Below, one piece after another: positions 1 through 26,213 of a stretch of DNA of 64,000 nt. The first letter of the stretch is position 1; the number at the start of each line of letters is the position of its first letter. The notes beneath the pieces are model-generated. The model had not been told where the DNA came from, made no database searches, and saw only the letters and a program-made list of their open reading frames with translations. Both the position numbers and the translations under genes were made by a program. Origin of the DNA: Escherichia coli (lineage in GTDB: Bacteria > Pseudomonadota > Gammaproteobacteria > Enterobacterales > Enterobacteriaceae); assembly GCF_003018115.1 (NCBI RefSeq), contig NZ_CP027457.1, one strand, 5' to 3'.

Positions 1-3000
1 ATATCTTCCGGAGACAGATACAGTTTCGGAACCATGACTGTCTGTCCGTTGATGGTGACTGACTCCCACCACAGCAGGCTTCTGGTCAGTTGTGCAACCT
101 GCCCGGCGGTCAGCGACACTCCAAAGGTCAGTCCGAGCGCTTTCTGTTGCGCTGCCGCGCTGTCCATCAGGTATTTCATCTGCGCCAGGTCAGAGCCTGT
201 GCCGTTAATATAACGTGAGCCCGTCTGGTTCAGTATGACGTTACTGACATACCGGGTATCAAAAGCCGCATCCCCCAGAAAGCGGTAATCTTTTTCCGGT
301 TTCAGGCCAAGACGGTCAAGAATGTACGACGAGCCCAGAAACTGTTTTTCATCGGTATATGCCGGGTCTGTTTCTCGTGGTGCCTGTCCGGGTTGCATCC
401 TGAGCAGGTCATACAGTCCGGCAAACAGACTGCTGTCCACCTTTCCGAGACCATCCAGTTTCGGGTTCACCGTAATCAGATACGGACTGTCCGGGTCCGT
501 GGACGGGACAAAATAACCATTGTTACCGGATGGCAGGGGATAGTTGCTTACACTTGCCCCGGACAGCGACAGCGCACCCGGGATATCCTTCAGCGTATCC
601 GGCAGCGCGTCATTCCATACAGGGCCGGTTATCCCGGTACCGCTTTCATTCAGCAGGGCTTCACCGCTCACCCCCTGACTGACCGTCGGTGGTGTCAGGG
701 AGTTCAGCGAAGGCACCGTTATCGTGTTACCTGCACCACCTGCCCGGGGCATGACAGTGGTATTACCGGTGTCAGTGGCAAAGCTGGCAGACACATCACC
801 GGCAGCGCTGATAACCGCACGGTACTGACCTGCCGGAGAGGTGCCACTGGCTTCTGTCGCATCCGGCGAGACCTGGCGATAGACCTTATACCATGGCTCA
901 GTAAACCACGCTTTGGGGAGTGAGCCGGAGGCAAGCCGCCAGACCGTTTCCTTTCCGGTGGTCCCCTCCTGCCAGCCCTGATTGTTCAGTGTGTCGCCAC
1001 TCAGGGTCATACTGCCACCGGCGAGAAGAAACGATGCCTCATTATCCAGTCGTCCTGCACGGATATGCATATCAGCGCCGCCGGATATCCGGGCAGCATG
1101 ACCGGAGGCACTGACTGTCACCGTTTCCGTATCGCCCGTACGGATACGGTATTCATCAGGTACCGTGGCACCCTCCCCCCAGTACACGGCCAGATATTCC
1201 ACACCATCATGCCGGACAACACCCCACCAACGGTTATTTTCCGGAACCGGTGAAATCACCCCGCGACTGCTTCCAGGAATGACCTCATGGCTGGCCGAAA
1301 TGGCATCCCAGGAATTCAGCAGATGCGCCGTATTCATGGTGATATCGCCACGTGTGGTTTCAATATTACCGGAACGGTTAATGATTTCGCTGTTTGCCGT
1401 ACCGCTGCTGTCCTTCTGTACCCACAGACTGTTGCCGGCCAGGATATCACCATGCTGGTTATGCAGACGGTCTGTAAACAGCTTCAGGTTATTCCCCGCA
1501 TAAATCAGCGCACTGTTCAGCAGGGTACCGGCCACATTCATTGTCAGACTGCCTGCCGTGCCGGTAAAACCACTGATGGTGATATCACTCCGGCTGTTCA
1601 GACTCACATCGCCACCGGCCTGAAGTGAACCCGGTGCGTTAAGGAAAAGACGCTGTGCGCTGAAAACACTGTTGCCTTTACCGGCAGTCAGCGTTCCATT
1701 GTTGGTGAATGCCTCTCCGGCACCGAGCACCATGGCATCACCCAGCATGACACCGCCGTTGGTGATGGCATTTTGCGACGTGACGGAAAGGGTTTTCCCT
1801 GCGGCCAGGGTACCGTAATTCGTGAGGGCAGCAATCAGTTTCAGTGTGACATCACCGGTGGCCACCACCTGGCCCTGACCACTGAAGTCCTGAGCGTCAA
1901 GCAGCAGGTTGCCTGCACTGTACAGCCGCCCTGTACCATTTTGCAGCAGTGAACTGCCCTTGACGCCAAGCCCGGAGGTTCCCAGCAGGGTACCGCTGTT
2001 GCTGAATGTGTGGTAATTCACCAGCAGATCCGCACCCTGAAGCGTACCGATATTATTCAGCGTGGTTCCTTTAACGTCGGCACTGCCGGTGGCAAGTACG
2101 CGTCCGCCGTTGACAGTATTCACCACATCCAGCAGCAGGGTGGCAGCCTGTACCAGTCCGCTGCCGGTGTTCGCCAGCACCTGCGCCGTCAGCGTGAGGT
2201 TACTGCCGGAGAAGATTTTGCCGTCGTTCTGCAGACGGTCAGTGGCGTTCAGGGAAACCCCGCCACCACCCTGTATCGTGCCCTGGTTACTCAGGGTCGC
2301 AGTACTGACATTCAGTGCATTCCGGCTCATCAGAACACCACCGGAACGGTTGTTCACGCCACCGGAGGCGGCCAGCGTCAGCGTTTCGCCCTGCAGATGC
2401 CCGCCGTTTGTGAGTTGTCCTGCCGTGATGGTGGTGGCATTTCCCTGTAATTGCCCGTCGTTTGTGACACTGTCTGCCTTCAGCGTCAGCACACCTGCAC
2501 TGAGCAGTTTTCCGCTCGCGTGATTGTTCAGCGTCTGATTCACCGTGAGCGTGAGAGCATCCACACCGGTGATGTCACCCGCACTGGTCAGTGAGTTCGC
2601 CTTCAGAGTCAGATTTTTTGCAATCCATTGTCCGCTGTTGCTTAAATTCAGTGCACTGAGCGCCATTTCACCGTTCGAGGTGACTTTGCTGCCTGCTGTG
2701 CTGACAAGCTCACCCGTCAGACGTGCAGTCAGGCTGTCAGCCGCCTGGATCGCCCCGCTGTTTGCCAGACTGTCTGCGGTGATCAGCACCCGTTTGCCCT
2801 GCCAGTGTCCGGAACTGGTAATACTGCCTGCGGTGATTGTCAGATCGCCGCTGGTCAGCAATGAACCTCCGTTATTCATCAGCGCAGGTTGAGGGGATAC
2901 CATACGAGCAGCAAGCGTCAGCGCGGCAATCCCGGTGAGCGAGCCACTGTTGGTGACACTGTTCTGGCGAATCGTGACATGGTCACCCTGGACAGTGCCG

Positions 3001-5501
3001 CTGTTATCCAGTGAGTTTCCATCAAGGGAGAGCGTGCCGGCCGAAAGCAGACTGCCCCGGTTGTCCGTGGTGGCTGCTTTCAGCGTGGTGTCACCCTGGC
3101 TCATGATATCGCCGGTACTGGTCAACTGACCGGTTGCCGAAGCAGTAAGGTTACCGGTTGCCAGTACGGAACCACTGTTCGCCCATCTGTCCGCCTGCAC
3201 GGTGAGATTCTGTCCCTGCGTGGTCCCTGCGGTATTCAGTGTTTTACCCCGGAGGGAGAGGTCGCCCGCCGTCAGCCAGCGTCCGTTACGGCCCTGTGAG
3301 AGGGTGTCGCCTGCAAGCGCCAGTGCACCTGCGCCCTGCAACAGGCCATCGCCATCCAGCGTGGTCGCCCTGACGTTCAGCGTGTCAGCGGTGATTTTTC
3401 CCGGATTGCTGAGGGAGGCAGTGTTTAACGTTAAACCGTTATCACCGGTGATAAGCCCGCTGTTGCGGATGTCCGGTATATCCAGCGTCAGGTCTGCAGC
3501 ACTGTACAGCGTGCCGTTCTGCTGATTATCAAGCCTCTGTGTGTTAACGGTGAGTGAGGCCTCCCCCTGCAACAGACCGCTGTTGGTCAGGGTCTGTGAC
3601 TGTGTATTCAGGGCGGAAGCAACAAGTACGCCGCTGCTGGTCAGTTCCGGCGCAATGAGGCTGAGCGACGGGGCACTGCTTTTCCCGCTGTGGGTGAGCT
3701 TTTCACTGGCGTTCACCACCATGGTCTGTTGTGCTGCCTGCGTACCTGCAAGACGTGCATCTCTGGCGTTGATGCTGAGATTTTTGCCGCTCTGAAGTTG
3801 TGCGCCCGCTGCGGTACTCAGTTTGTCTGCCTGAACCCGGAGGGTGTCACCGGCACTGGTTTCCCCGTCCAGCGCCACGGTTGTCACATTCAGCGTCATC
3901 GCAGCATCGCTGTGGGTGACTGATTTTTTACCGGAGCTCAGCGTCTGCGCACTGACTGTCAGCCCTTTGCCGCCGGACAGCACACCGTTCTGTGTCACAT
4001 CCTGCGCCTTCAGCACCAGTACATCATCGCTCACCAGCGAACCTGTACTGGTCAGTTTCCCACTGGCTGTGATATCCACTTTGCCCTTCGCGCCAGTGCG
4101 GCCGCTCTGGGTAAAGTCGCGGGTATTCACGGTCAGGCGACCGCCACTGAGCAGGGAGCCACTGTTGCTGAGCGTTGTACTGCCGAGCGTCAGGGAAGCC
4201 CCCTGAACAGCACCACTGTTATTCAGCGTGCCGGCATCGAGTCCCGCATGACCTTTCGCCAGCAATATTCCGTCCTGTGTCAGCGTGGTGGCGCTGGCCG
4301 TGAGATTCTGCCCGGCGGTTATCTGTCCCTGTGTTGTCAACGTGTCACTGGCGACAGTCACAATATTGCGGGCCGCGTTAATCTGGCTGGCGGTATCCTG
4401 TGTGATGTTTTTCGCGGCAAGCGTTACATCCCGGCCGGCAGTCAGTTTTTCATTCTGTTGAGTGATTCTGCCGCCGGCGGTCAGGCTGAGGTCCTTGTCG
4501 CTGTTAAGCGTTCCATTGCTGAGAACGATATCGCTCCGGCTGCTGACGCTCAGGTTACCTCCCGCTTTATGGTCGCCGGTTAAGGTGACGCCCTGACCTT
4601 TTGCAGTGACGGCCCCCGTGGCGAGACTGTTGTTGACAGTCAGTCTGCCGCTGGCATCCAGGGTGATATCGCCATCGCGGGCATAAAGGTTACCAAGATT
4701 AACCCCGACACCACTTTCAGTGGAGGTCAGATGAATACGCCTGGCGTACATTCCACCGAGCGCGCCGGTATCAACGGCAACTTTCGGCACATCACCTTCG
4801 CCCTTCAGTGCACTGACACGACCATCTGCAGTTATCCGGTTAGCGCCTGCAGTGACAGTTAAATCCTTCGCATGAAGCGCGGCATTCACTTCCGTTGCAC
4901 GGGCAATAATGGATACGGCATCGCTCCGGGTGCCGTCCAGGCCCGCGCCATTGATGGTGATACTGCCTTCAGTCACCTCCAGCGCCTGCAGGCTGCCGTC
5001 GGCATTCATCACAGGTCTGCCCGTGGTGAGCGTCGCGTGCGGCGTGTTGATAAAACCACAGCCGTCACAGGTGATACCATACGGGTTGGCAACAATCACA
5101 TTCGCCGCTTTGCCGGCCACTTCCGTATAGCCCTGCAGCAGTGAACGGTTACCGCCGGTCACTTCGTTGATGATACCCTTCGCTTCCCCGCCCGCTTTCA
5201 GGTTCGGGTTATTCTGTATCAGTCCACCAAGCTGCGTCGGATTAAGCTTACCGGTGGCATTATTGAGAATCAGCCCTTCCTTCCCGACGTTGTAATCCGT
5301 AAACCGGTTATGCGAAATCCCGGCCCCGTTCGGCGTGGCAATGTTCACGACCGGCACACCATTTGCCGCTTTATCCATTCCGGCCCCGTTTTGTGGGGTG
5401 ATGACGGCCCCCACAGCCGGTAACAACGGCTGCCCGGCGATAATCGTACTGATAAGGTAACTCAGCAGGCGGTAAGTGAAGCGAACGGGAGGCTGATGCA
5501 T
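1..5501 (-). CDS. cdiA: CdiA-like two-partner-secretion exoprotein (contact-dependent inhibition toxin / filamentous hemagglutinin family), N-terminal ~1833 codons only; C-terminal toxin region lies beyond window start
   Basis: Manual minus-strand translation from ATG at 5501..5499 gives [105 protein letters not shown], a TPS secretion domain. The ORF track shows no stop-bounded minus-strand fragments across 1..5500 apart from one 71-aa off-frame ORF, so the frame appears open to the window edge. Plus-strand ORFs here are low-complexity antisense products. Sits directly downstream of cdiB. Confidence 0.8.
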
Positions 5502-5513
5502 GGTAATAATCCC

Positions 5514-7280
5514 TTAAAACGCGACGGCAACGCGCCAGTAAACCGTGAGATGGTCAGGGGCAAGCCAGTCCGGGTAGACCAGAGGCAGTCCGGCGGTGAA
5601 CGAACCGGAAACATGACCACTGGTGGTGCTGAGCCCGGCAGCAGCACCCCACAGCGTGCCGGACGAGTACGGGTCATCGCTGTCAGAGTGCAGCCAGCCG
5701 CCGTCCAGTGCAGCCACTGCACGGACAGTTCCCACATATGGCAGGGAGAACAGAGACCAGGACAGCTCATTTCGCAGATAACCGCCGTTATTACCGGAGA
5801 TATACTGCTCCTTAAAGCCACGCACTGAACTCTCACCCCCGAGGCTCAGTTGTTCCACACCATGAAGACGGTCCGGTGACCACTGGGCATAAGCGCTGGT
5901 CAGCCACCACACCCTGTCCGTGACGGGGCGCTGAAAACTGGCACTCACCGACCATTTCCGGAACTGATTTACGGGCAGGTCTCCCCTTTTCCCGTGGTCG
6001 CTTTCTGCGCCGAACCAGGGCATCCCCCGTGTGAATACCGGATTCAGTGTTCCGACCCCCCCCAGAAACTTGTGTGTGTGATTCAGCCCGACAGAAAATG
6101 AAGTGAGTTTACGGCTGCTGCCCTGAAGCAGAACATCATCCAGATAATTGTGAATAATGCGGTGCTGCAGACCTCCGGTCAGTGCTGTCTTCATGTCCCC
6201 GTTACGGAACAGAACATGCGACAGTCCCAGCCGGTGAGTCTGCAGGTCTCCCGTGGAACGCCACCGCCAGCCCCGGTTATCAATGGTGCTGAGGTAGTCA
6301 CTCCATGAATACGTGTAATCCACCAGGGTATAGCCATACGGCAGACTGACACCGGCGGCAAAATTCCTCGCATCATGTGACACCGAAAAGTCACTGCTCC
6401 GTCCCCCGCTGACAAACCAGTTGTCAGCCAGCCCCAGCGGATTATTAAAGGAAAGGACACCATTTAACTGCCCCGTACCGGTATTCTTCTGTCCGCTGTT
6501 GTCGAAGCCCGCGCTCCCTGTGACAGGCCATTCCGGCGATGCCGTCAGTGTCACCACCGACCATCCCTCACGGTCACCGGGCGATATTTCAATCTGTACC
6601 GGCTCCGTACGCAGACGGTTAATCTGCTCCATCCCCTGCTCAATATCCCGCAGGTTCAGAACCGCCCCCTCCATTCCCGGGAAAACCATCTTCAGGGTGC
6701 GGGCAGGAAGGTCAGCGCCTTCCGCCCGGATTTGCTGCAGCCTGCCTTCCATGACCGTTATGTGCAGTACGCCCCCTGAAAGGTCCTGCTCTGTCAGAAA
6801 GGCCCGGCTGGTGATATATCCCCGACGTATATAGCCGTCCGTCACAGCATCCGTGACCGTGGTCAGCCCCGTGATATTCAGACACTGATTCACCCACGGT
6901 GCCACCAGTCTGTCGGTTTCTGCAGACGTCAGTCGGGTGGCCCCACTGACAACAATGCGTGACACCGTAAAGCAGGGACCTTCAGTACCGGCAGACGTTT
7001 CCCGAGACGGTACAACAGTCAGCGGCGTACTGCGCTCCAGCGCATCACGCTGACGCTGGTTTTCATCCAGCAACTGCTGCTGTTGCTGCTGAATTGCACT
7101 GCGGTCACCCGGAGACAGCATGGCTGCCGGAGACGAAAACGAAAGAATACAAAGGCAGGGGAGGAGGGAAAAATAGCGTGCCACCGGAGAGAAAGTGCGG
7201 AGCTTAAATGCGCACTGACCGGAAACCATACCAGGCAACAAATTTCTGTTCGCCAGTAAGTTATCCTGCCGGTGCTGCAT
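5514..7280 (-). CDS. cdiB: CdiB / TpsB-family outer-membrane transporter (ShlB/FhaC-like) for CdiA
   Basis: 588-aa ORF ending in aromatic ...YWRVAVAF typical of outer-membrane beta-barrels; stop 13 nt upstream of the cdiA start; classic tpsB-tpsA order. Confidence 0.8.
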   Translation of the reverse strand: MQHRQDNLLANRNLLPGMVSGQCAFKLRTFSPVARYFSLLPCLCILSFSSPAAMLSPGDRSAIQQQQQQLLDENQRQRDALERSTPLTVVPSRETSAGTEGPCFTVSRIVVSGATRLTSAETDRLVAPWVNQCLNITGLTTVTDAVTDGYIRRGYITSRAFLTEQDLSGGVLHITVMEGRLQQIRAEGADLPARTLKMVFPGMEGAVLNLRDIEQGMEQINRLRTEPVQIEISPGDREGWSVVTLTASPEWPVTGSAGFDNSGQKNTGTGQLNGVLSFNNPLGLADNWFVSGGRSSDFSVSHDARNFAAGVSLPYGYTLVDYTYSWSDYLSTIDNRGWRWRSTGDLQTHRLGLSHVLFRNGDMKTALTGGLQHRIIHNYLDDVLLQGSSRKLTSFSVGLNHTHKFLGGVGTLNPVFTRGMPWFGAESDHGKRGDLPVNQFRKWSVSASFQRPVTDRVWWLTSAYAQWSPDRLHGVEQLSLGGESSVRGFKEQYISGNNGGYLRNELSWSLFSLPYVGTVRAVAALDGGWLHSDSDDPYSSGTLWGAAAGLSTTSGHVSGSFTAGLPLVYPDWLAPDHLTVYWRVAVAF

Positions 7281-7454
7281 ATTCTCCTCGTGGGGTATCC
7301 AGTGTAAATTAACGTAAGTGGAATGTCAGTGCTGAAATTTACACCAGATAAAAAACATACAGAAACAATCCTGTTATGTAAAATCCGGAAAAAATGTCAG
7401 AAATGTGATCAGAGTTGTGTTTTACGGAGGGGAGTGCACTGCGCACGGACTAAT

Positions 7455-7590
7455 CGGAACCTATCGGCTGAGCGATATCGATCCGGAAGCGTATCTGCCT
7501 CATATACTGAGAGTTTTGCCGGAATGGCCTTCCAACCTGTTGATGAACTACCTCCATGGAACGTAGTGCTCACCAATAAATAAGCGTCAT
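7455..7590 (+). mobile_element. IS66-family remnant (degenerate 3' end of tnpC)
   Basis: DNA aligns with 13784..13918 (gatccggaagcgtatctgc...ccggaatggccttccaacc...ccatggaacgtag...caccaataaataagcgtca); translation ends ...PPWNVVLTNK like the IS66 TnpC C-terminus but with frame disruptions. Confidence 0.55.
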
Positions 7591-8641: not shown

Positions 8642-9337
8642 TTAGCAGTCATCAATAATCAAGTAAGTTGCATGTACTGGTCCATGCACACCAACAACTT
8701 TGATCAGTTCTATATCTGCAGTAGAACTTGGGCCTCCAATCAGATTGATACAGGAAGGCAGTCGTTGTCCTTCCTGAGCCATTTCATGAAGTTTTTGCGC
8801 AAGCTGAGCCACTCGGGGGAGAATAGTGCTTTTGCGTAAAACAAATAATGATGCTTCAGGCAAAAGGCTTACTGAGCGCCCACGTTCTGGTGCGGAGAAT
8901 AAGACAATGCCTCCTGATTCTGTCAGCCCATACTCAGCGAAAACGACACCAGTTTTTGCCTTTTCAGCAAGATGGATATTTTCATCGCCCTTCTCCGGAT
9001 CCCACAGAGCAGCGTCCATTTCTTTTTGTAGCAATGGCGTAATCCCTGTATCGACCAGTCGTTGATCGTTGCTGATAATGACTGGCCCGGAACCGAACTT
9101 CCAACAGATGTCTAAGGCTGTTGATGGTGCGTTCTCAGGCGACACCAGAACACACTCGGCAAGCATCACTTCCGAGGCAAATTTAATAAACGCCTCACAG
9201 CGTTGGTCTGATGTCAACTCTGTTAAACGTGTCGTAGCCAGCGTATTTACAGGCTCCGGCATTGCTTCGGGAATATGTCTTACTGGTCTGCCAAGCTTTC
9301 TGGCGATCGCAACGAGAAATTCCTCTCTGTTTTCCAT
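8642..9337 (-). CDS. ykgG: LutC/YkgG-family lactate utilization protein
   Basis: 231-aa ORF; third gene of a lutA-lutB-lutC-type cluster, sequence consistent with YkgG/LutC. Confidence 0.7.
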   Translation of the reverse strand: MENREEFLVAIARKLGRPVRHIPEAMPEPVNTLATTRLTELTSDQRCEAFIKFASEVMLAECVLVSPENAPSTALDICWKFGSGPVIISNDQRLVDTGITPLLQKEMDAALWDPEKGDENIHLAEKAKTGVVFAEYGLTESGGIVLFSAPERGRSVSLLPEASLFVLRKSTILPRVAQLAQKLHEMAQEGQRLPSCINLIGGPSSTADIELIKVVGVHGPVHATYLIIDDC

Positions 9338-9340
9338 AAA

Positions 9341-10756
9341 TTACCCCTCCTTCTTATGTCGCTTGAACCAACTACGGAAGCTTTCTCCATCAGGTGATGG
9401 CAGGTCTCTGGCTTCAGTCCATTCTTTTATCGCTCCAACACTAATCGGCGTTTTTCCTTTCCTGATGAACAGACGGGCTGTTTTGGCCCCAGCAACCATA
9501 CCTACCTTCCACAACGCCGGATGGCTGTTTATGTAATTGAATGCTCTGGTTATACGGCGTTCCGTTAATGGTGTGATTTCAGACTCTGCCATAACCTGGC
9601 GATGTTTTTGTATTAGCGTTGCCAGAGGTATTTTTACAGGACATACCCCATTGCAGGCAGTGCACAATGAGCAGGCATAGGGTAAATCCTTAAAGTCTTC
9701 ATATCCACCAAGCAATGGGGAAATAACCGCGCCGATTGGCCCCGGGTAGATTGAACCATAACCATGCCCACCAATCTGACGATAAGCCGGGCAGGTATTA
9801 ATGCAGGCACCGCAGCGGATACATCGCAATACATCGCTGAATTCTGAGCCGAGAATCTCTGAACGCCCATTGTCAACAATAACGAGATGGAACTCTTCCG
9901 GACCATCAACATGTCCTTCTTCTCTGGGGCCTGTAAGCCAGGTGTTATAACCTGTCAGTCTCGCCCCGACAGCACTCCTTGCAAGCATGGTAATCAGAAC
10001 ATCCACCTCCTGGAATGTCGGAGCAATACGCTCCATACCCATAACAGCAATATGTGTTTTAGGTAATGTGGTGCACATCCGTGCGTTGCCTTCGTTTGTA
10101 ACAAGGCAGACTGACCCTGTTTCTGCAACGGCAAAGTTACACCCCGTTACGCCAACTTCAGCACTCAGAAAATCTTGTCTGATTTTCTCACGGATGAACA
10201 ATGTCATTGCTTCTGGAGTTTCAGGCCCGTCATACCCCAGATGTTCATGTAAAACTCTGCGGATTTGATGGCGATCTTTATGTATTGCCGGCACAACCAC
10301 ATGCGATGGTGGCTCATGTGCTAGCTGAAGAATATATTCCCCAAGGTCCGTTTCAATCACGGGTATCCCGGCTTTCTGAAGAACGGCATTCATGCCAATT
10401 TCCTCAGTCACCATTGATTTGGATTTAACAACCTTCCTGGCGTTTTTTTCTTTCGCCACCTTCAGTATGTAACTGGTTGCATCCTCTCTGGTACGGGCAA
10501 AATATACATGCCCGCCATTCGCAGTAACCTTTTCGGACAATTGATACAAATAAGCATCAAGATTTTCCAGAACATGCCGACGAATCTGTTCAGCTCGTGA
10601 ACGCCATTCCTCCCAGTGTCCCAGTTCATCAACCATTTTCTGTCGATTAGTCCCTATGCGCTCCTGTGCGTTAGCCACAGCTTTTCGCATGATCGGGTCC
10701 TGAATCTGAATACGGATACGCTCTTTAAACCTGATATCACTTGTTTTCAAAGACAT
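9341..10756 (-). CDS. ykgF: LutB/YkgF-family iron-sulfur lactate utilization protein
   Basis: 471-aa ORF with two CxxCxxCxxxCP ferredoxin-type motifs (CIRCGACINTCPAY, CSLCTACNGVCPVKIP). Confidence 0.8.
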   Translation of the reverse strand: MSLKTSDIRFKERIRIQIQDPIMRKAVANAQERIGTNRQKMVDELGHWEEWRSRAEQIRRHVLENLDAYLYQLSEKVTANGGHVYFARTREDATSYILKVAKEKNARKVVKSKSMVTEEIGMNAVLQKAGIPVIETDLGEYILQLAHEPPSHVVVPAIHKDRHQIRRVLHEHLGYDGPETPEAMTLFIREKIRQDFLSAEVGVTGCNFAVAETGSVCLVTNEGNARMCTTLPKTHIAVMGMERIAPTFQEVDVLITMLARSAVGARLTGYNTWLTGPREEGHVDGPEEFHLVIVDNGRSEILGSEFSDVLRCIRCGACINTCPAYRQIGGHGYGSIYPGPIGAVISPLLGGYEDFKDLPYACSLCTACNGVCPVKIPLATLIQKHRQVMAESEITPLTERRITRAFNYINSHPALWKVGMVAGAKTARLFIRKGKTPISVGAIKEWTEARDLPSPDGESFRSWFKRHKKEG

Positions 10757-10766
10757 TCTGTTTACC

Positions 10767-11486
10767 TCATCTGTGCATCAGGACTTCAGCAATATGCATC
10801 ACTTTTACAGGATGCCCTTCACGGTTAAGCCGACCGCCGATGTTTAGCAGGCAACTGGCGTCAGCCCCGATAAGAAAATCAGGTTTAACATCCATAATAT
10901 GCCCGACTTTCTCTTTCACCATTTCACCAGAGATCTCCGCCATTTTTACAGAGAATGTGCCGCCAAACCCGCAGCACGTTTCCTGAGCGTGAAACGGCAG
11001 TAGCTCAAGCCCCTGTACATTCTCAAGTAGCAAAAGCGGCTCTCTGGTTACCCCCAGCTTACGGGAAAGGCTGCAGGAGGGATGGTACACAGCGCGACCA
11101 TTGAGTTTTGCCCCAACATCTGTGATGCCAAGATGATTTACTATAAATGATGTCAAATCATGCAGGCGTTCAGCCACTTTTTCAGCTCGTGCCGCCCACT
11201 CAGGTTCTTCACTGAGATAGCGAGCGTAATTTTTTATCGTGTAAGTGCATGACCCGGCAGGAGATACTACCGGCCAGTCATTCTCTTCCAGCGAAGATAT
11301 GAGATTTTTCATGCCCGGGATGGCATCACGAACATAACCGCCATTTATCGCTGGCTGACCACAACATCCCTGCTTTTCGGGGAAATGGACATTGCAACCC
11401 AATTGCTCCAGTAACAGCACACTCTTTTGTGCCATCCGGGATTTAAACGCATCACCAATGCAGGTGACGAAAAAGTTAACATTCAC
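10767..11486 (-). CDS. ykgE: LutA/YkgE-family Cys-rich (CCG domain) Fe-S oxidoreductase subunit
   Basis: 239-aa ORF with GCCGQP and CCGFGGTF motifs typical of the YkgE/LutA family. Confidence 0.8.
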   Translation of the reverse strand: MNVNFFVTCIGDAFKSRMAQKSVLLLEQLGCNVHFPEKQGCCGQPAINGGYVRDAIPGMKNLISSLEENDWPVVSPAGSCTYTIKNYARYLSEEPEWAARAEKVAERLHDLTSFIVNHLGITDVGAKLNGRAVYHPSCSLSRKLGVTREPLLLLENVQGLELLPFHAQETCCGFGGTFSVKMAEISGEMVKEKVGHIMDVKPDFLIGADASCLLNIGGRLNREGHPVKVMHIAEVLMHR

Positions 11487-11535
11487 AGAAATTTCTCCTG
11501 TTGATTAATATTCCACGTCCTTTTGTTGTTTTTTC

Positions 11536-23462: not shown

Positions 23463-24680
23463 CTAAGCGAATTCCTTAGTGTTTTTAGCAAGTTGAGACA
23501 TCACATAATCCGCCCATGCCTGCATCATCGGTACACGCTGCTCCAGTAGATCAGTACGATGATATGCCGCCTCAACCTTATTTTTCAGCGTATGAGCGAG
23601 CGCCCTTTCCGCCAGATCCCGCGAATACCCCTGTTCACTACACCAGTCCCTGAATGTTGAGCGAAAACCATGTGCCGTGGCAACTCGCCCCGGTATATCA
23701 CTGATGGCTTTCTTTTTACGCAGAAAACTCGTCAACACCATATCTGAAAGGATCTGCTGCTTTCTGGGAGAAGGAAACACTAGTTCATCATGCAAACCAC
23801 GTATATTTTCCAGAATGTGAATGGCCTGCCGGGATAAAGGAACACGATGCTGTATCCTGGCTTTCATTCTTTCTGCGGGTATAGTCCATATCCGCTTATG
23901 AAAATCAATTTCAGCCCAGCGCATTCCCCTGGCTTCGCCCGAGCGGGTTGCTGTAAGTATCACCATTAATAACAGTGCCCGGGTAACATTATAAGGTTCA
24001 TCTGTATACACACTGGTCGCCACAAAAAGCGGTAACTGCCTCCAGGGCATTGCGGGTTGGTGTTCATCACGTCCTCTTGTCTGCTGAGGAAGCAAATGGT
24101 CAACCACATCAACAGGGTTTGCCACACAAAAACCGTGCGCCCATCCCCACTGCATAACAACATGAATGCGCTGTTTAACCCGGCTTGCCGTTTCTGACAA
24201 GGTTAACCAGACTGGACGCAGTGTTTCTGCCACGTCCGCAGCCGTAATCGAATCCAGCGTTTTTGCTCCCAGTTGAGGAAACGCGTAATTTTCAAGCGTC
24301 GATAACCACTGCCTGACATGCTTTGGATTTTCCCATCCCGGTGACAATTCAGCATGTACACGCCTGGCTGCATCGGCAAATGTTGGGATAACAACTTTTT
24401 CAGCTTCAGCCTTTTTAATCTCCAGTGGGTCATCACCTGCAGCAAGTTGCTCTCGCATTATCCGGGCAGCACGTGCAGCTTCAGCAATACTGACCTCAGG
24501 ATAAGTTCCCAATCCAGCATTACGCCTTTTTTGTGTCACCGGACTTACATAACGAAAAACCCATTTACCCCGCCCTTTTACTGAAGAAGGATGAAGAGTC
24601 AGTCCTGTAATTCCCCCATGGGGCAATGGTTTGTCATCAGGTTTGATATGCCTTGCTTTAGTATCCGTCAATACTGCCAT
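23463..24680 (-). CDS. P4-type tyrosine integrase
   Basis: 405-aa ORF with N-terminal MAVLTDTKARHIKPDDKPLPHGGITGLTL... and C-terminal catalytic region (HGFRSTF...LAHT...AAYHRTDLLEQR) typical of P4-family integrases. Confidence 0.85.
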   Translation of the reverse strand: MAVLTDTKARHIKPDDKPLPHGGITGLTLHPSSVKGRGKWVFRYVSPVTQKRRNAGLGTYPEVSIAEAARAARIMREQLAAGDDPLEIKKAEAEKVVIPTFADAARRVHAELSPGWENPKHVRQWLSTLENYAFPQLGAKTLDSITAADVAETLRPVWLTLSETASRVKQRIHVVMQWGWAHGFCVANPVDVVDHLLPQQTRGRDEHQPAMPWRQLPLFVATSVYTDEPYNVTRALLLMVILTATRSGEARGMRWAEIDFHKRIWTIPAERMKARIQHRVPLSRQAIHILENIRGLHDELVFPSPRKQQILSDMVLTSFLRKKKAISDIPGRVATAHGFRSTFRDWCSEQGYSRDLAERALAHTLKNKVEAAYHRTDLLEQRVPMMQAWADYVMSQLAKNTKEFA

Positions 24681-24866
24681 ACGCTAATTCCTGTTACTCT
24701 GGTATGCCATCCAGTATGCCATTAGTCTCTCGCTTCACTAAGAATACATTAGATAATATCGGACAGCAAAAAGTGTAATACATTGTTTATAATGAAATTA
24801 TATAACACCCCCGGATTAAGTCAGATTTATTTCAGGCGGCCCCCCTCACCGCCATATTTAAAGAAG

Positions 24867-24898
24867 AGCTCGTACGAAAGTACGGGCTTTTTTTTCGT
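24867..24898 (+). terminator. Rho-independent terminator (8-bp stem, GAAA loop, U8) with no plus-strand CDS upstream
   Basis: GCTCGTAC gaaa GTACGGGC followed by TTTTTTTT. Confidence 0.5.
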
Positions 24899-24945
24899 AT
24901 ATTGCACACACCGGGGGGATGAGAATCCCCGACCGGGATACTTAG

Positions 24946-25632
24946 TTAATGCAACGGTTCACTCTTTGTCGCCGCGACTAATGGGCGAATTTTGTCACGA
25001 GTCTCCCAGACCGGAGGGATTTCCTCCAATTTAGTGACAGAAGCTCGTACAAAAGGCACCCGTGCAAGAGTCATAATCGTATCCAACCAACGGTCACGAA
25101 TAATGCGATCCGCCCTTTCATGACTCGGGTCATCCAGCTCAATAACACAGACTATTTTATTGTTCTTCTTTGAAACCAGAACATAATCCATTGCCATGCC
25201 ATTATAAATTGCAAAGAAACGCTTTCTTTCTTCTTCGCTAAACTCAGGTTGTTCTGGAAAGTTGATCAAGCGCCCCAGAGAGACCTGGCAATGGATATGA
25301 CAATAATGTCCAAACCATTTTTCCAGATTATCGAAATACATTTTTTCACAACGCGTGATTAACCACTCTTTTCTTTCCAATAAAATACCTTCGGCAACCA
25401 TTCCCTGAAATAACTCATCTCGCTCTTGCCAACGAGAGTCACGATAGGTTTTCTGCGGTATATAGCTCCTTGTCGACGCCTTAGCGGCAGGGGAAGTTGC
25501 AGATGAAGGGACTGGTTGCGATTTAGCGATGATTACCGATGAGGCAACTTTTCGGAGTGTCAATTTTCTGGCAACAGCAAAACCGGCGATAAATGCAATT
25601 GTCAAACAAGTTACAAAAGACATAAAGCTCAT
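24946..25632 (-). CDS. membrane-anchored hypothetical protein, possibly DUF2726/Vsr-like nuclease fold
   Basis: 228-aa ORF with hydrophobic N-terminus; C-terminal DYVLVSKKNNKIVCVIELDDPSHERADRIIRDRWLDTIMTLARVPFVR resembles the D...(I/V)E(L)D..sH pattern of that fold. Confidence 0.4.
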   Translation of the reverse strand: MSFMSFVTCLTIAFIAGFAVARKLTLRKVASSVIIAKSQPVPSSATSPAAKASTRSYIPQKTYRDSRWQERDELFQGMVAEGILLERKEWLITRCEKMYFDNLEKWFGHYCHIHCQVSLGRLINFPEQPEFSEEERKRFFAIYNGMAMDYVLVSKKNNKIVCVIELDDPSHERADRIIRDRWLDTIMTLARVPFVRASVTKLEEIPPVWETRDKIRPLVAATKSEPLH

Positions 25633-26166
25633 AATTAATGTTCACCTATCCATGTTGATTATATTTCATTACCAATGTTACTCGCTGAAGCGTGTTACAT
25701 GCCAACAATGCAACGATCAATATATAGTTAGTATCATGTTTTGATTATTACAACCATCCCTATTTAGCCATTGCGGCTTGCCTTCCACAAAAAAACAACA
25801 ACACACAATATTAGCCAAAGAATTAATTAAGATTAACCTTACATTTATAATATTATCCCTAAAGAATAAATCAGAGGAATATATTCGGTGTTAAACAGTC
25901 AGTCAAAGTATGGCCCATTGTTGATTAAACCTCATAAGCAAAATTGGCACCAGATCTCCTGTACAGGTTGAATGGCCGAAAAAAGATAGGCAGATGCTCA
26001 TTTTTTTGGCTTCTGGAAGAAAAACTCTCCGCGCTGGCAGTATTACACTGGTCTGATGCTATGACGAAAAATGCCTGGTAAGAGTATCTAAACCAGACTC
26101 CAGTTCAGCTTATCAACACCCTCAAAGTCGCCCCCCTGAACGCTAACCTGAAGTGAAAATCTGTTG

Positions 26167-26195
26167 AAATAAAACAAAGCCCGGTTCGCCCGGGC
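26167..26195 (-). terminator. phoH rho-independent terminator
   Basis: GCCCGGTTCGCCCGGGC hairpin with a downstream U-run on the minus strand. Confidence 0.6.
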
Positions 26196-26213
26196 TCTGC
26201 ACCGATAATACAC

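Follow-up and report, generated by a model that had tools for sequence, protein, structure and literature searches.

The plasmid pCP127 of Escherichia coli EC93 carries two experimentally studied class I contact-dependent inhibition (CDI) systems with demonstrated CDI activity (Waneskog et al. 2021, PMC8190604). Class I is defined by the fragment Arg1358-Phe1646 of the prototype effector CdiA-EC93, which binds E. coli BamA (Ruhe et al. 2017, PMC5371414), and in this receptor-binding region the identity among classes I, II and III is only 24-27% (PMC5371414). Class IV loci (cdiBCAI) have an additional acyltransferase cistron (PMC8510554). Here we describe a cdiBA locus at the start of a 64,000-nt stretch of E. 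coli contig NZ_CP027457.1 (assembly GCF_003018115.1), hereafter the window, whose minus strand carries a complete cdiB and the 5' part of cdiA. The locus is very probably a class I CDI system of known type, carried by a horizontally acquired island at serX, with an inferred tip that combines a PtsG-type entry domain, a deaminase toxin and a DUF6911 immunity protein. Public E. coli genomes already contain the cdiBA locus in annotated form, and the inferred toxin type has been catalogued before.

The open reading frame (ORF) at 5514..7280 on the minus strand is complete from ATG to stop and encodes 588 aa. We assigned it to the TpsB/Omp85 family of outer-membrane transporters, as CdiB, because it matches the Pfam families ShlB (1e-90), POTRA_2 (1e-22) and POTRA_3 (1e-17). 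This gene for a transporter with POTRA domains and a ShlB-type barrel adjoins that of the exoprotein, cdiA, across a 12-nt spacer read from the sequence (5502..5513, minus strand). CdiA starts with the ATG at 5501 (MHQPPVRF...) and fills 1..5501 of the minus strand up to the window edge, so that residues 1-1833 are in view. From 5513 to base 3 the frame runs through 1837 codons without a stop, 1833 of them within CdiA, and an inspection of 1..5513 for in-frame stops or frameshifts found none. The remaining two minus-strand frames contain no open stretch longer than 100 codons. Over the shared part, the cdiA DNA is 100% identical to that of E. coli 2014C-4135 and of contig NTDY01000062.1.

Following the domain order described for CdiA (PMC9086364), the visible portion could be divided into five segments, all on the minus strand. 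Residues 1-35 (5397..5501) form a hydrophobic N-terminus ahead of the first Pfam match and were taken as the signal peptide. They are followed by the two-partner secretion (TPS) domain at residues 36-288 (4638..5396), with matches to PF05860 (1.1e-49) and TIGR01901 (5.9e-17) and the motifs NPNL (98) and NPYGI (139). The beta-helical filament of filamentous haemagglutinin (FHA) repeats, FHA-1, spans residues 289-1375 (1377..4637) and was recognized from multiple weak Fil_haemagg and DUF5649 matches; this repeat region of ~1100 residues is composed of 14% L, 13% G, 12.7% T, 10.9% A, 10.7% S and 7.9% N. An N-terminal TPS domain leading into FHA-type repeats is thus directly visible, as expected of a CDI exoprotein. 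A complete receptor-binding domain follows at residues 1376-1664 (510..1376). Beyond it, the first ~170 residues of the Tyr/Pro-enriched (YP) domain, tied to secretion arrest in reviews (PMC9086364), are in view at residues 1665-1833 (1..509) up to the window edge. The YP assignment relies on position after the receptor-binding domain and on 99-100% identity to EC93 CdiA; its exact boundaries are approximate placements.

A sequence-only reading of this DNA had proposed a minus-strand TpsB transporter and an adjoining TPS-domain exoprotein that runs for at least 5.5 kb through haemagglutinin-type repeats off the window start, and had called the pair cdiB and 5' cdiA. The domain matches and the open frame bear out the transporter, the exoprotein and its extent, and the identity of the genes is supported by their domain content together with 97-100% identity to the EC93 CdiA proteins. 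That reading had named an in-frame stop or frameshift, or an N-terminus unrelated to TPS domains, as grounds for abandoning it; the visible frame is uninterrupted and the N-terminus matches TPS. It had lumped the receptor-binding domain (nt 510-1376) in with the repeats, and the window also holds the start of the YP domain.

The receptor class could be read from the window itself. Residues 1376-1664 are homologous to CdiA-EC93 Arg1358-Phe1646 at 98.3% identity, with 5 substitutions in 289 residues. Because this domain is nearly identical to the mapped BamA-binding fragment, the window CdiA is, by homology, a class I effector predicted to target BamA. The domain would set the class (I, BamA) and thereby the target range of the system. 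CdiA-EC93, encoded by cdi-1, has the same domain order, but its FHA-1 is only 40-44% identical over residues 300-600 and there is an 18-residue length difference. The toxin of cdi-1 is an ionophore with a 79-aa CdiI, unlike the deaminase tip described below.

The second EC93 system, cdiBAI-2, is closer. It shares the cdiB-cdiA arrangement and is 98.3% identical to the window at the DNA level over 1-7139, although it lies on a plasmid whereas the window locus lies in a chromosomal serX island. Among complete E. coli genomes (n = 5,426; megablast), the cdiBA region was found in 782. The best match, E. coli 2014C-4135 (99.9%), is annotated there as cdiA and a ShlB/FhaC/HecB-family transporter.

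Since the window ends at residue 1833, the distal part of CdiA was deduced from public copies, namely 2014C-4135 and contigs that encode an identical CdiB. The window is 100% identical to 2014C-4135 over 1-5513, and the cdiA gene of that strain comprises 3225 codons; the window would accordingly hold 57% of the protein (residues 1-1833 of an inferred 3225). We looked up the exact CdiB protein in public assemblies because the fairness of 2014C-4135 as a proxy needed testing. The lookup returned 22 contigs, of which we examined eight. All eight encode a 3225-aa CdiA with TPS, Fil_haemagg_2, PT-VENN, DUF6862 and Deam_C matches, followed by a DUF6911 gene. In seven of them CdiA is identical both to the 1833 residues of the window and to the whole 2014C-4135 protein, and the visible portion of CdiI is the same in all eight. 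Contig NTDY01000062.1 matches the window at 100% throughout the 5.8 kb compared and has the same tip and downstream orphan array.

In these proxies cdiA runs for another 1392 codons (4.18 kb) past the window edge. The out-of-view part of the protein matches FHA-2 repeats (1.8e-43), PT-VENN (1.7e-19) and DUF6862 (7e-10), and VENN, at residue 2923 of 3225, falls ~3.3 kb past the window edge, which leaves a variable C-terminal region of 303 residues counted from VENN. The sequence-only reading had placed the toxin tip just beyond position 1, which these distances correct; its expectation that VENN, a polymorphic toxin, cdiI and orphan modules lie outside the window agrees with every exact-CdiB contig examined. 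Relative to the full-length proxies, EC93 CdiA-2 is 97-100% identical over residues 1-2300 (TPS, FHA-1, receptor-binding domain, YP and the start of FHA-2), but identity falls to 46-64% in the distal FHA-2 and pre-toxin region and the toxin/immunity pairs are unrelated. In every proxy a 127-aa DUF6911 ORF stands right after the cdiA stop, and its product is the predicted immunity protein, CdiI. The genes downstream of cdiI begin with a colicin-D-like toxin and its colicin immunity gene. Next come a 285-aa ORF, then a DUF4258 protein alongside an 87-aa ORF, then a VENN fragment truncated at its 5' end and accompanied by a CdiI_ImmP gene, and last copies of the insertion sequence IS66.

The tip of the proxy proteins begins with an entry domain. 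Domains that use PtsG have been defined by homology to those of EC3006, NC101 and STEC_O31, an aromatic residue after VENN and the pair Cys55-Cys65 (PMC9424206). The first 166 residues after VENN match residues 2-167 of PDB 6VEK, the C-terminal toxin region (CdiA-CT) of EC3006 (Bartelli et al. 2022, PMC9424206), with an E-value of 7e-70, and Tyr5, Cys55 and Cys65 are conserved; Pfam adds the DUF6862 match (7e-10). By these features the proxies carry a predicted PtsG-dependent entry domain. The cargo differs, as EC3006 delivers a tRNase of the BECR fold whereas the proxy CdiA ends in a deaminase fold.

The last ~135 residues of the proxy CdiA match Deam_C (PF24241, 2.3e-50), with a partial MafB19-deam match (1.7e-5) and dCMP_cyt_deam_1 at 0.003, and contain the motifs AHAE(3152-3154) and C3182-x-x-C3185. 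Among 34 homologues of this domain, neither Cys residue ever varies, and H, A and E are each retained in >=90%. These homologues occur in Serratia, Yersinia, Xenorhabdus, Cedecea, Hahella and metagenomes, many of them under the annotation of a filamentous haemagglutinin fragment. The secondary structure ends in a beta-hairpin and has no helix 4, for which reason the domain fits the C-terminal-hairpin division of deaminases, where Iyer et al. placed the MafB19 clade. Overall, the proxy toxin domain has the cytidine-deaminase fold. The best fold match was the plant RNA-editing DYW domain, with DddB, SsdA and DddA also among the top matches. DddA (B. cenocepacia), SsdA (P. syringae) and DddB/BaDTF3 share with the proxy tip the C-terminal-hairpin zinc-deaminase fold and the HxE and CxxC motifs, and are likewise located at the C-terminus of polymorphic toxins with a cognate immunity gene.

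This combination has been catalogued before. In Halvorsen et al. 2024 (PMC11630599 Table 2), the pairing of a MafB19 deaminase and a PtsG entry domain appears as 'type 17' of the E. coli CdiA-CT toxins, a predicted and uncharacterised cytosine deaminase. By its description, their example, STEC 2573 WP_077879060.1, combines the same type of entry domain with a MafB19/Deam_C deaminase. A search of PDB sequences with the deaminase-family profile found no relative, and CdiI gave a marginal PDB match only, to the uncharacterised protein 6ANZ (E 1e-4). NCBIfam scans of the full-length CdiA, CdiI and orphan-module proteins returned TPS and FHA repeat models only and none for the toxin or immunity proteins, and a PADLOC scan of the toxin, CdiI and CdiB gave no match. 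The toxin/immunity DNA is rare, with three occurrences in the 5,426 complete genomes, and the exact CdiI is indexed in 347 blocks of a broader assembly collection. In E. coli 89-3156 CP027366.1 and in AASBVO010000006.1 (locus 9070-10384), the deaminase/DUF6911 module is present in orphan form, with DUF6862 and Deam_C in an ORF of 296-309 aa. The CdiA ahead of it is a different one, of 3239 aa and with a 77-aa immunity gene of its own, and the module is followed by a type I restriction-modification system.

Several observations weigh against extending the proxies to the window. FHA-2, VENN, toxin and cdiI were deduced from other assemblies, and CdiA C-termini are known to recombine, with CdiA-CT/CdiI modules exchanged between effectors (PMC5371414). 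All of the public contigs examined differ from the window somewhere along the shared stretch, with 1-2 mismatches outside cdiA, and one of the eight examined CdiA proteins has three substitutions in FHA-1. We nevertheless consider it very likely, judging from the near-identical copies, that the window's own cdiA ends as the proxies do. The window cdiA might instead bear another toxin/immunity pair, acquired by recombination at or after VENN or by promotion of an orphan module. Such module exchange, the occurrence of the deaminase/DUF6911 module as an orphan behind the 3239-aa CdiA and the different lineages of the core genomes of the window and 2014C-4135 would all favor this. It is improbable given that the deaminase tip is found in all eight exact-CdiB contigs examined, that the island is 99.9% identical to that of 2014C-4135 over 24.9 kb, and that NTDY01000062.1, identical throughout the 5' part of cdiA, has the same tip and orphan array. 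A frameshift, stop or insertion sequence outside the window, which would reduce the locus to a pseudogene remnant, is a slimmer prospect still. Fragments of IS66 and other transposases abound on the island, and several neighbouring genes are pseudogenes in 2014C-4135, but the 5.5 kb of visible cdiA contain no lesion and the 3225-codon gene is intact in all near-identical copies examined. Finally, a TPS domain, a ShlB-type transporter and haemagglutinin repeats are common to all TpsA/TpsB pairs, so that an adhesin or haemolysin of the FHA/ShlA type, which delivers no toxin between bacteria, could in principle look alike. We rejected this reading as hardly tenable: the 97-100% identity to EC93 CdiA proteins with demonstrated CDI, which includes the BamA-binding domain (PMC8190604), effectively refutes it, and PT-VENN, a toxin and an immunity gene are all present in the full-length copies.

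With the deaminase tip as the preferred reading, its substrate can be weighed in turn. As its most likely activity, the type 17 tip is predicted, from its family and motifs, to deaminate C to U in nucleic acid. In two screens, toxins of the MafB19 clade acted as cytosine deaminases on single-stranded or double-stranded DNA; EcDa01 (MafB19 family) is among the enzymes in the screen of Vaisvila et al. DNA appears somewhat more likely than RNA as the substrate: roughly, a little over half of our expectation lies with DNA, a quarter or slightly more with RNA and the rest with nucleotides or others. That the tip acts on RNA (C-to-U in tRNA, rRNA or mRNA) or on free nucleotides and not on DNA is a fair possibility, though we regard it as less likely than not, as the assayed clade members deaminate DNA and DddB, SsdA and DddA are among the top fold matches. 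A narrower version, in which the tip is a C-to-U RNA deaminase of tRNA, rRNA or mRNA rather than a DNA mutator like DddA or SsdA, and hence an RNA-editing CDI toxin with a new immunity fold in DUF6911, is in line with the best fold match to the DYW domain and seems unlikely.

The locus lies on an island that spans 1-24839 of the window. At its right boundary, comparison with the empty site of E. coli F9792 (gene order ghrA, serX, DUF2726, phoH) mapped a 15-nt 3' remnant of the tRNA-Ser gene serX at 24840..24854 on the plus strand. A tyrosine integrase adjoins this remnant (23463-24680), and the DUF2726 gene lies to the right of the island (24946-25632). ARAGORN predicted no tRNA gene in the window, and the serX attachment site was recognized only through the empty-site comparison. 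Identity to 2014C-4135 is 99.9% over 1-24915 but drops to 96-98% in the flanking core. That core is instead 99.2-99.7% identical to F9792, which groups with O169:H41 genomes. On the strength of this split between island and core, the island is, as judged by sequence comparison, horizontally shared. The G+C content of cdiBA is 55-59%, compared with 42-49% in the adjacent island DNA. The island of 2014C-4135 extends over ~71 kb to an intact serX; its further cargo includes a type I restriction-modification system, DarTG, a dGTPase and Ag43. The same integrase module bears different cargo in enteropathogenic E. coli (EPEC) E2348/69. A further copy was found in LGZH01000049.1 (GCA_001191205.1), where 1-21767 carries cdiB, cdiA and cdiI with an identical CdiA beside IncFII repA, finO, traX and traI; this contig looks like an F-type plasmid. 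It ceases to be homologous to the window ~160 bp upstream of cdiB (~7439), near a transposase remnant at 7423-7583.

Upstream of cdiB, the minus-strand segment 7281..7439, up to which the homology to the plasmid-borne copy reaches, is the candidate promoter region. A promoter scan found three sigma-70-like sites at 7382-7281, a count not above shuffle expectation. We also considered a class IV system, in which CdiA is lipidated (cdiBCAI). The 12-nt cdiB-cdiA spacer contains no ORF and thus leaves no room for cdiC, the HlyC-type acyltransferase gene of class IV, to which the locus therefore does not belong. Class IV proteins also have diverged FHA-1 and receptor-binding regions, and both regions are EC93-like here. 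In a base-by-base comparison with 2014C-4135, eight substitutions account for all differences in the first 7.4 kb. They cluster in 740 bp of cdiB (5772-6511), with zero substitutions within the 5.5 kb of the window cdiA. As the CdiB allele of the window is the common one (the 22 contigs), this cluster may be a recombination patch in 2014C-4135.

Elsewhere on the island, an operon of the lutABC type for lactate utilisation with a lactate permease occupies 8642-13092. Its lutC (8642-9337) is intact in the window, and a 1-nt difference at 8815 frameshifts the gene in 2014C-4135. Remains of past rearrangements within the island lie at 13457-14443. They are part of an IS66 transposase (13457-13943), 99% identical to the IS66 by the orphan array of 2014C-4135, and a truncated ORF for an autotransporter beta-barrel (14003-14443). 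Beyond the island, 2014C-4135 has a block with pgaABCD, dgcT, IS3 and ycdU between phoH and the island (window 24855-26213 versus L004 29235-40097). The block is absent from the window, F9792 and E2348/69, where the DUF2726 gene adjoins phoH instead. A 2.5-kb insert between efeU and putP (31049-33588) contains an ORF on the plus strand (32097-33440) for a 447-aa protein with three internal repeats of ~60 residues and the motif ...W...ARNYL..GL.... The insert was found in 645 of the 5,426 complete genomes and is absent from 2014C-4135; in the matches listed, the 447-aa protein is annotated as hypothetical, and it has no NCBIfam match.

How such a system would act is described by the published EC93-type model (PMC8510554, PMC9086364, PMC9424206), from which the following steps are taken; the window itself contributes the gene content, the domain architecture and the near-identity to EC93 effectors. 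CdiB would export CdiA, with FHA-1 forming a filament that presents the receptor-binding domain at its tip. Secretion would then pause, while CdiA's C-terminal half remains in the periplasm. Export would start again once the effector has bound BamA on an adjacent E. coli cell, upon which FHA-2 would insert into the outer membrane of the target and the toxin region at the C-terminus would be cleaved after VENN. The entry domain would cross the inner membrane using PtsG and the proton gradient, and the deaminase could damage nucleic acid of the target, whereas in sibling cells the DUF6911 protein would neutralise the toxin.

For the source strain, the class I assignment means that it can probably target other E. 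coli via BamA. The same cdiBAI unit occurs in unrelated chromosomal backgrounds, in the serX island, and beside IncFII plasmid genes, which indicates that the weapon travels horizontally. A nucleic-acid deaminase delivered by CDI could mutagenise surviving neighbours, as has been shown for DddA, or serve as a scaffold for base editing.

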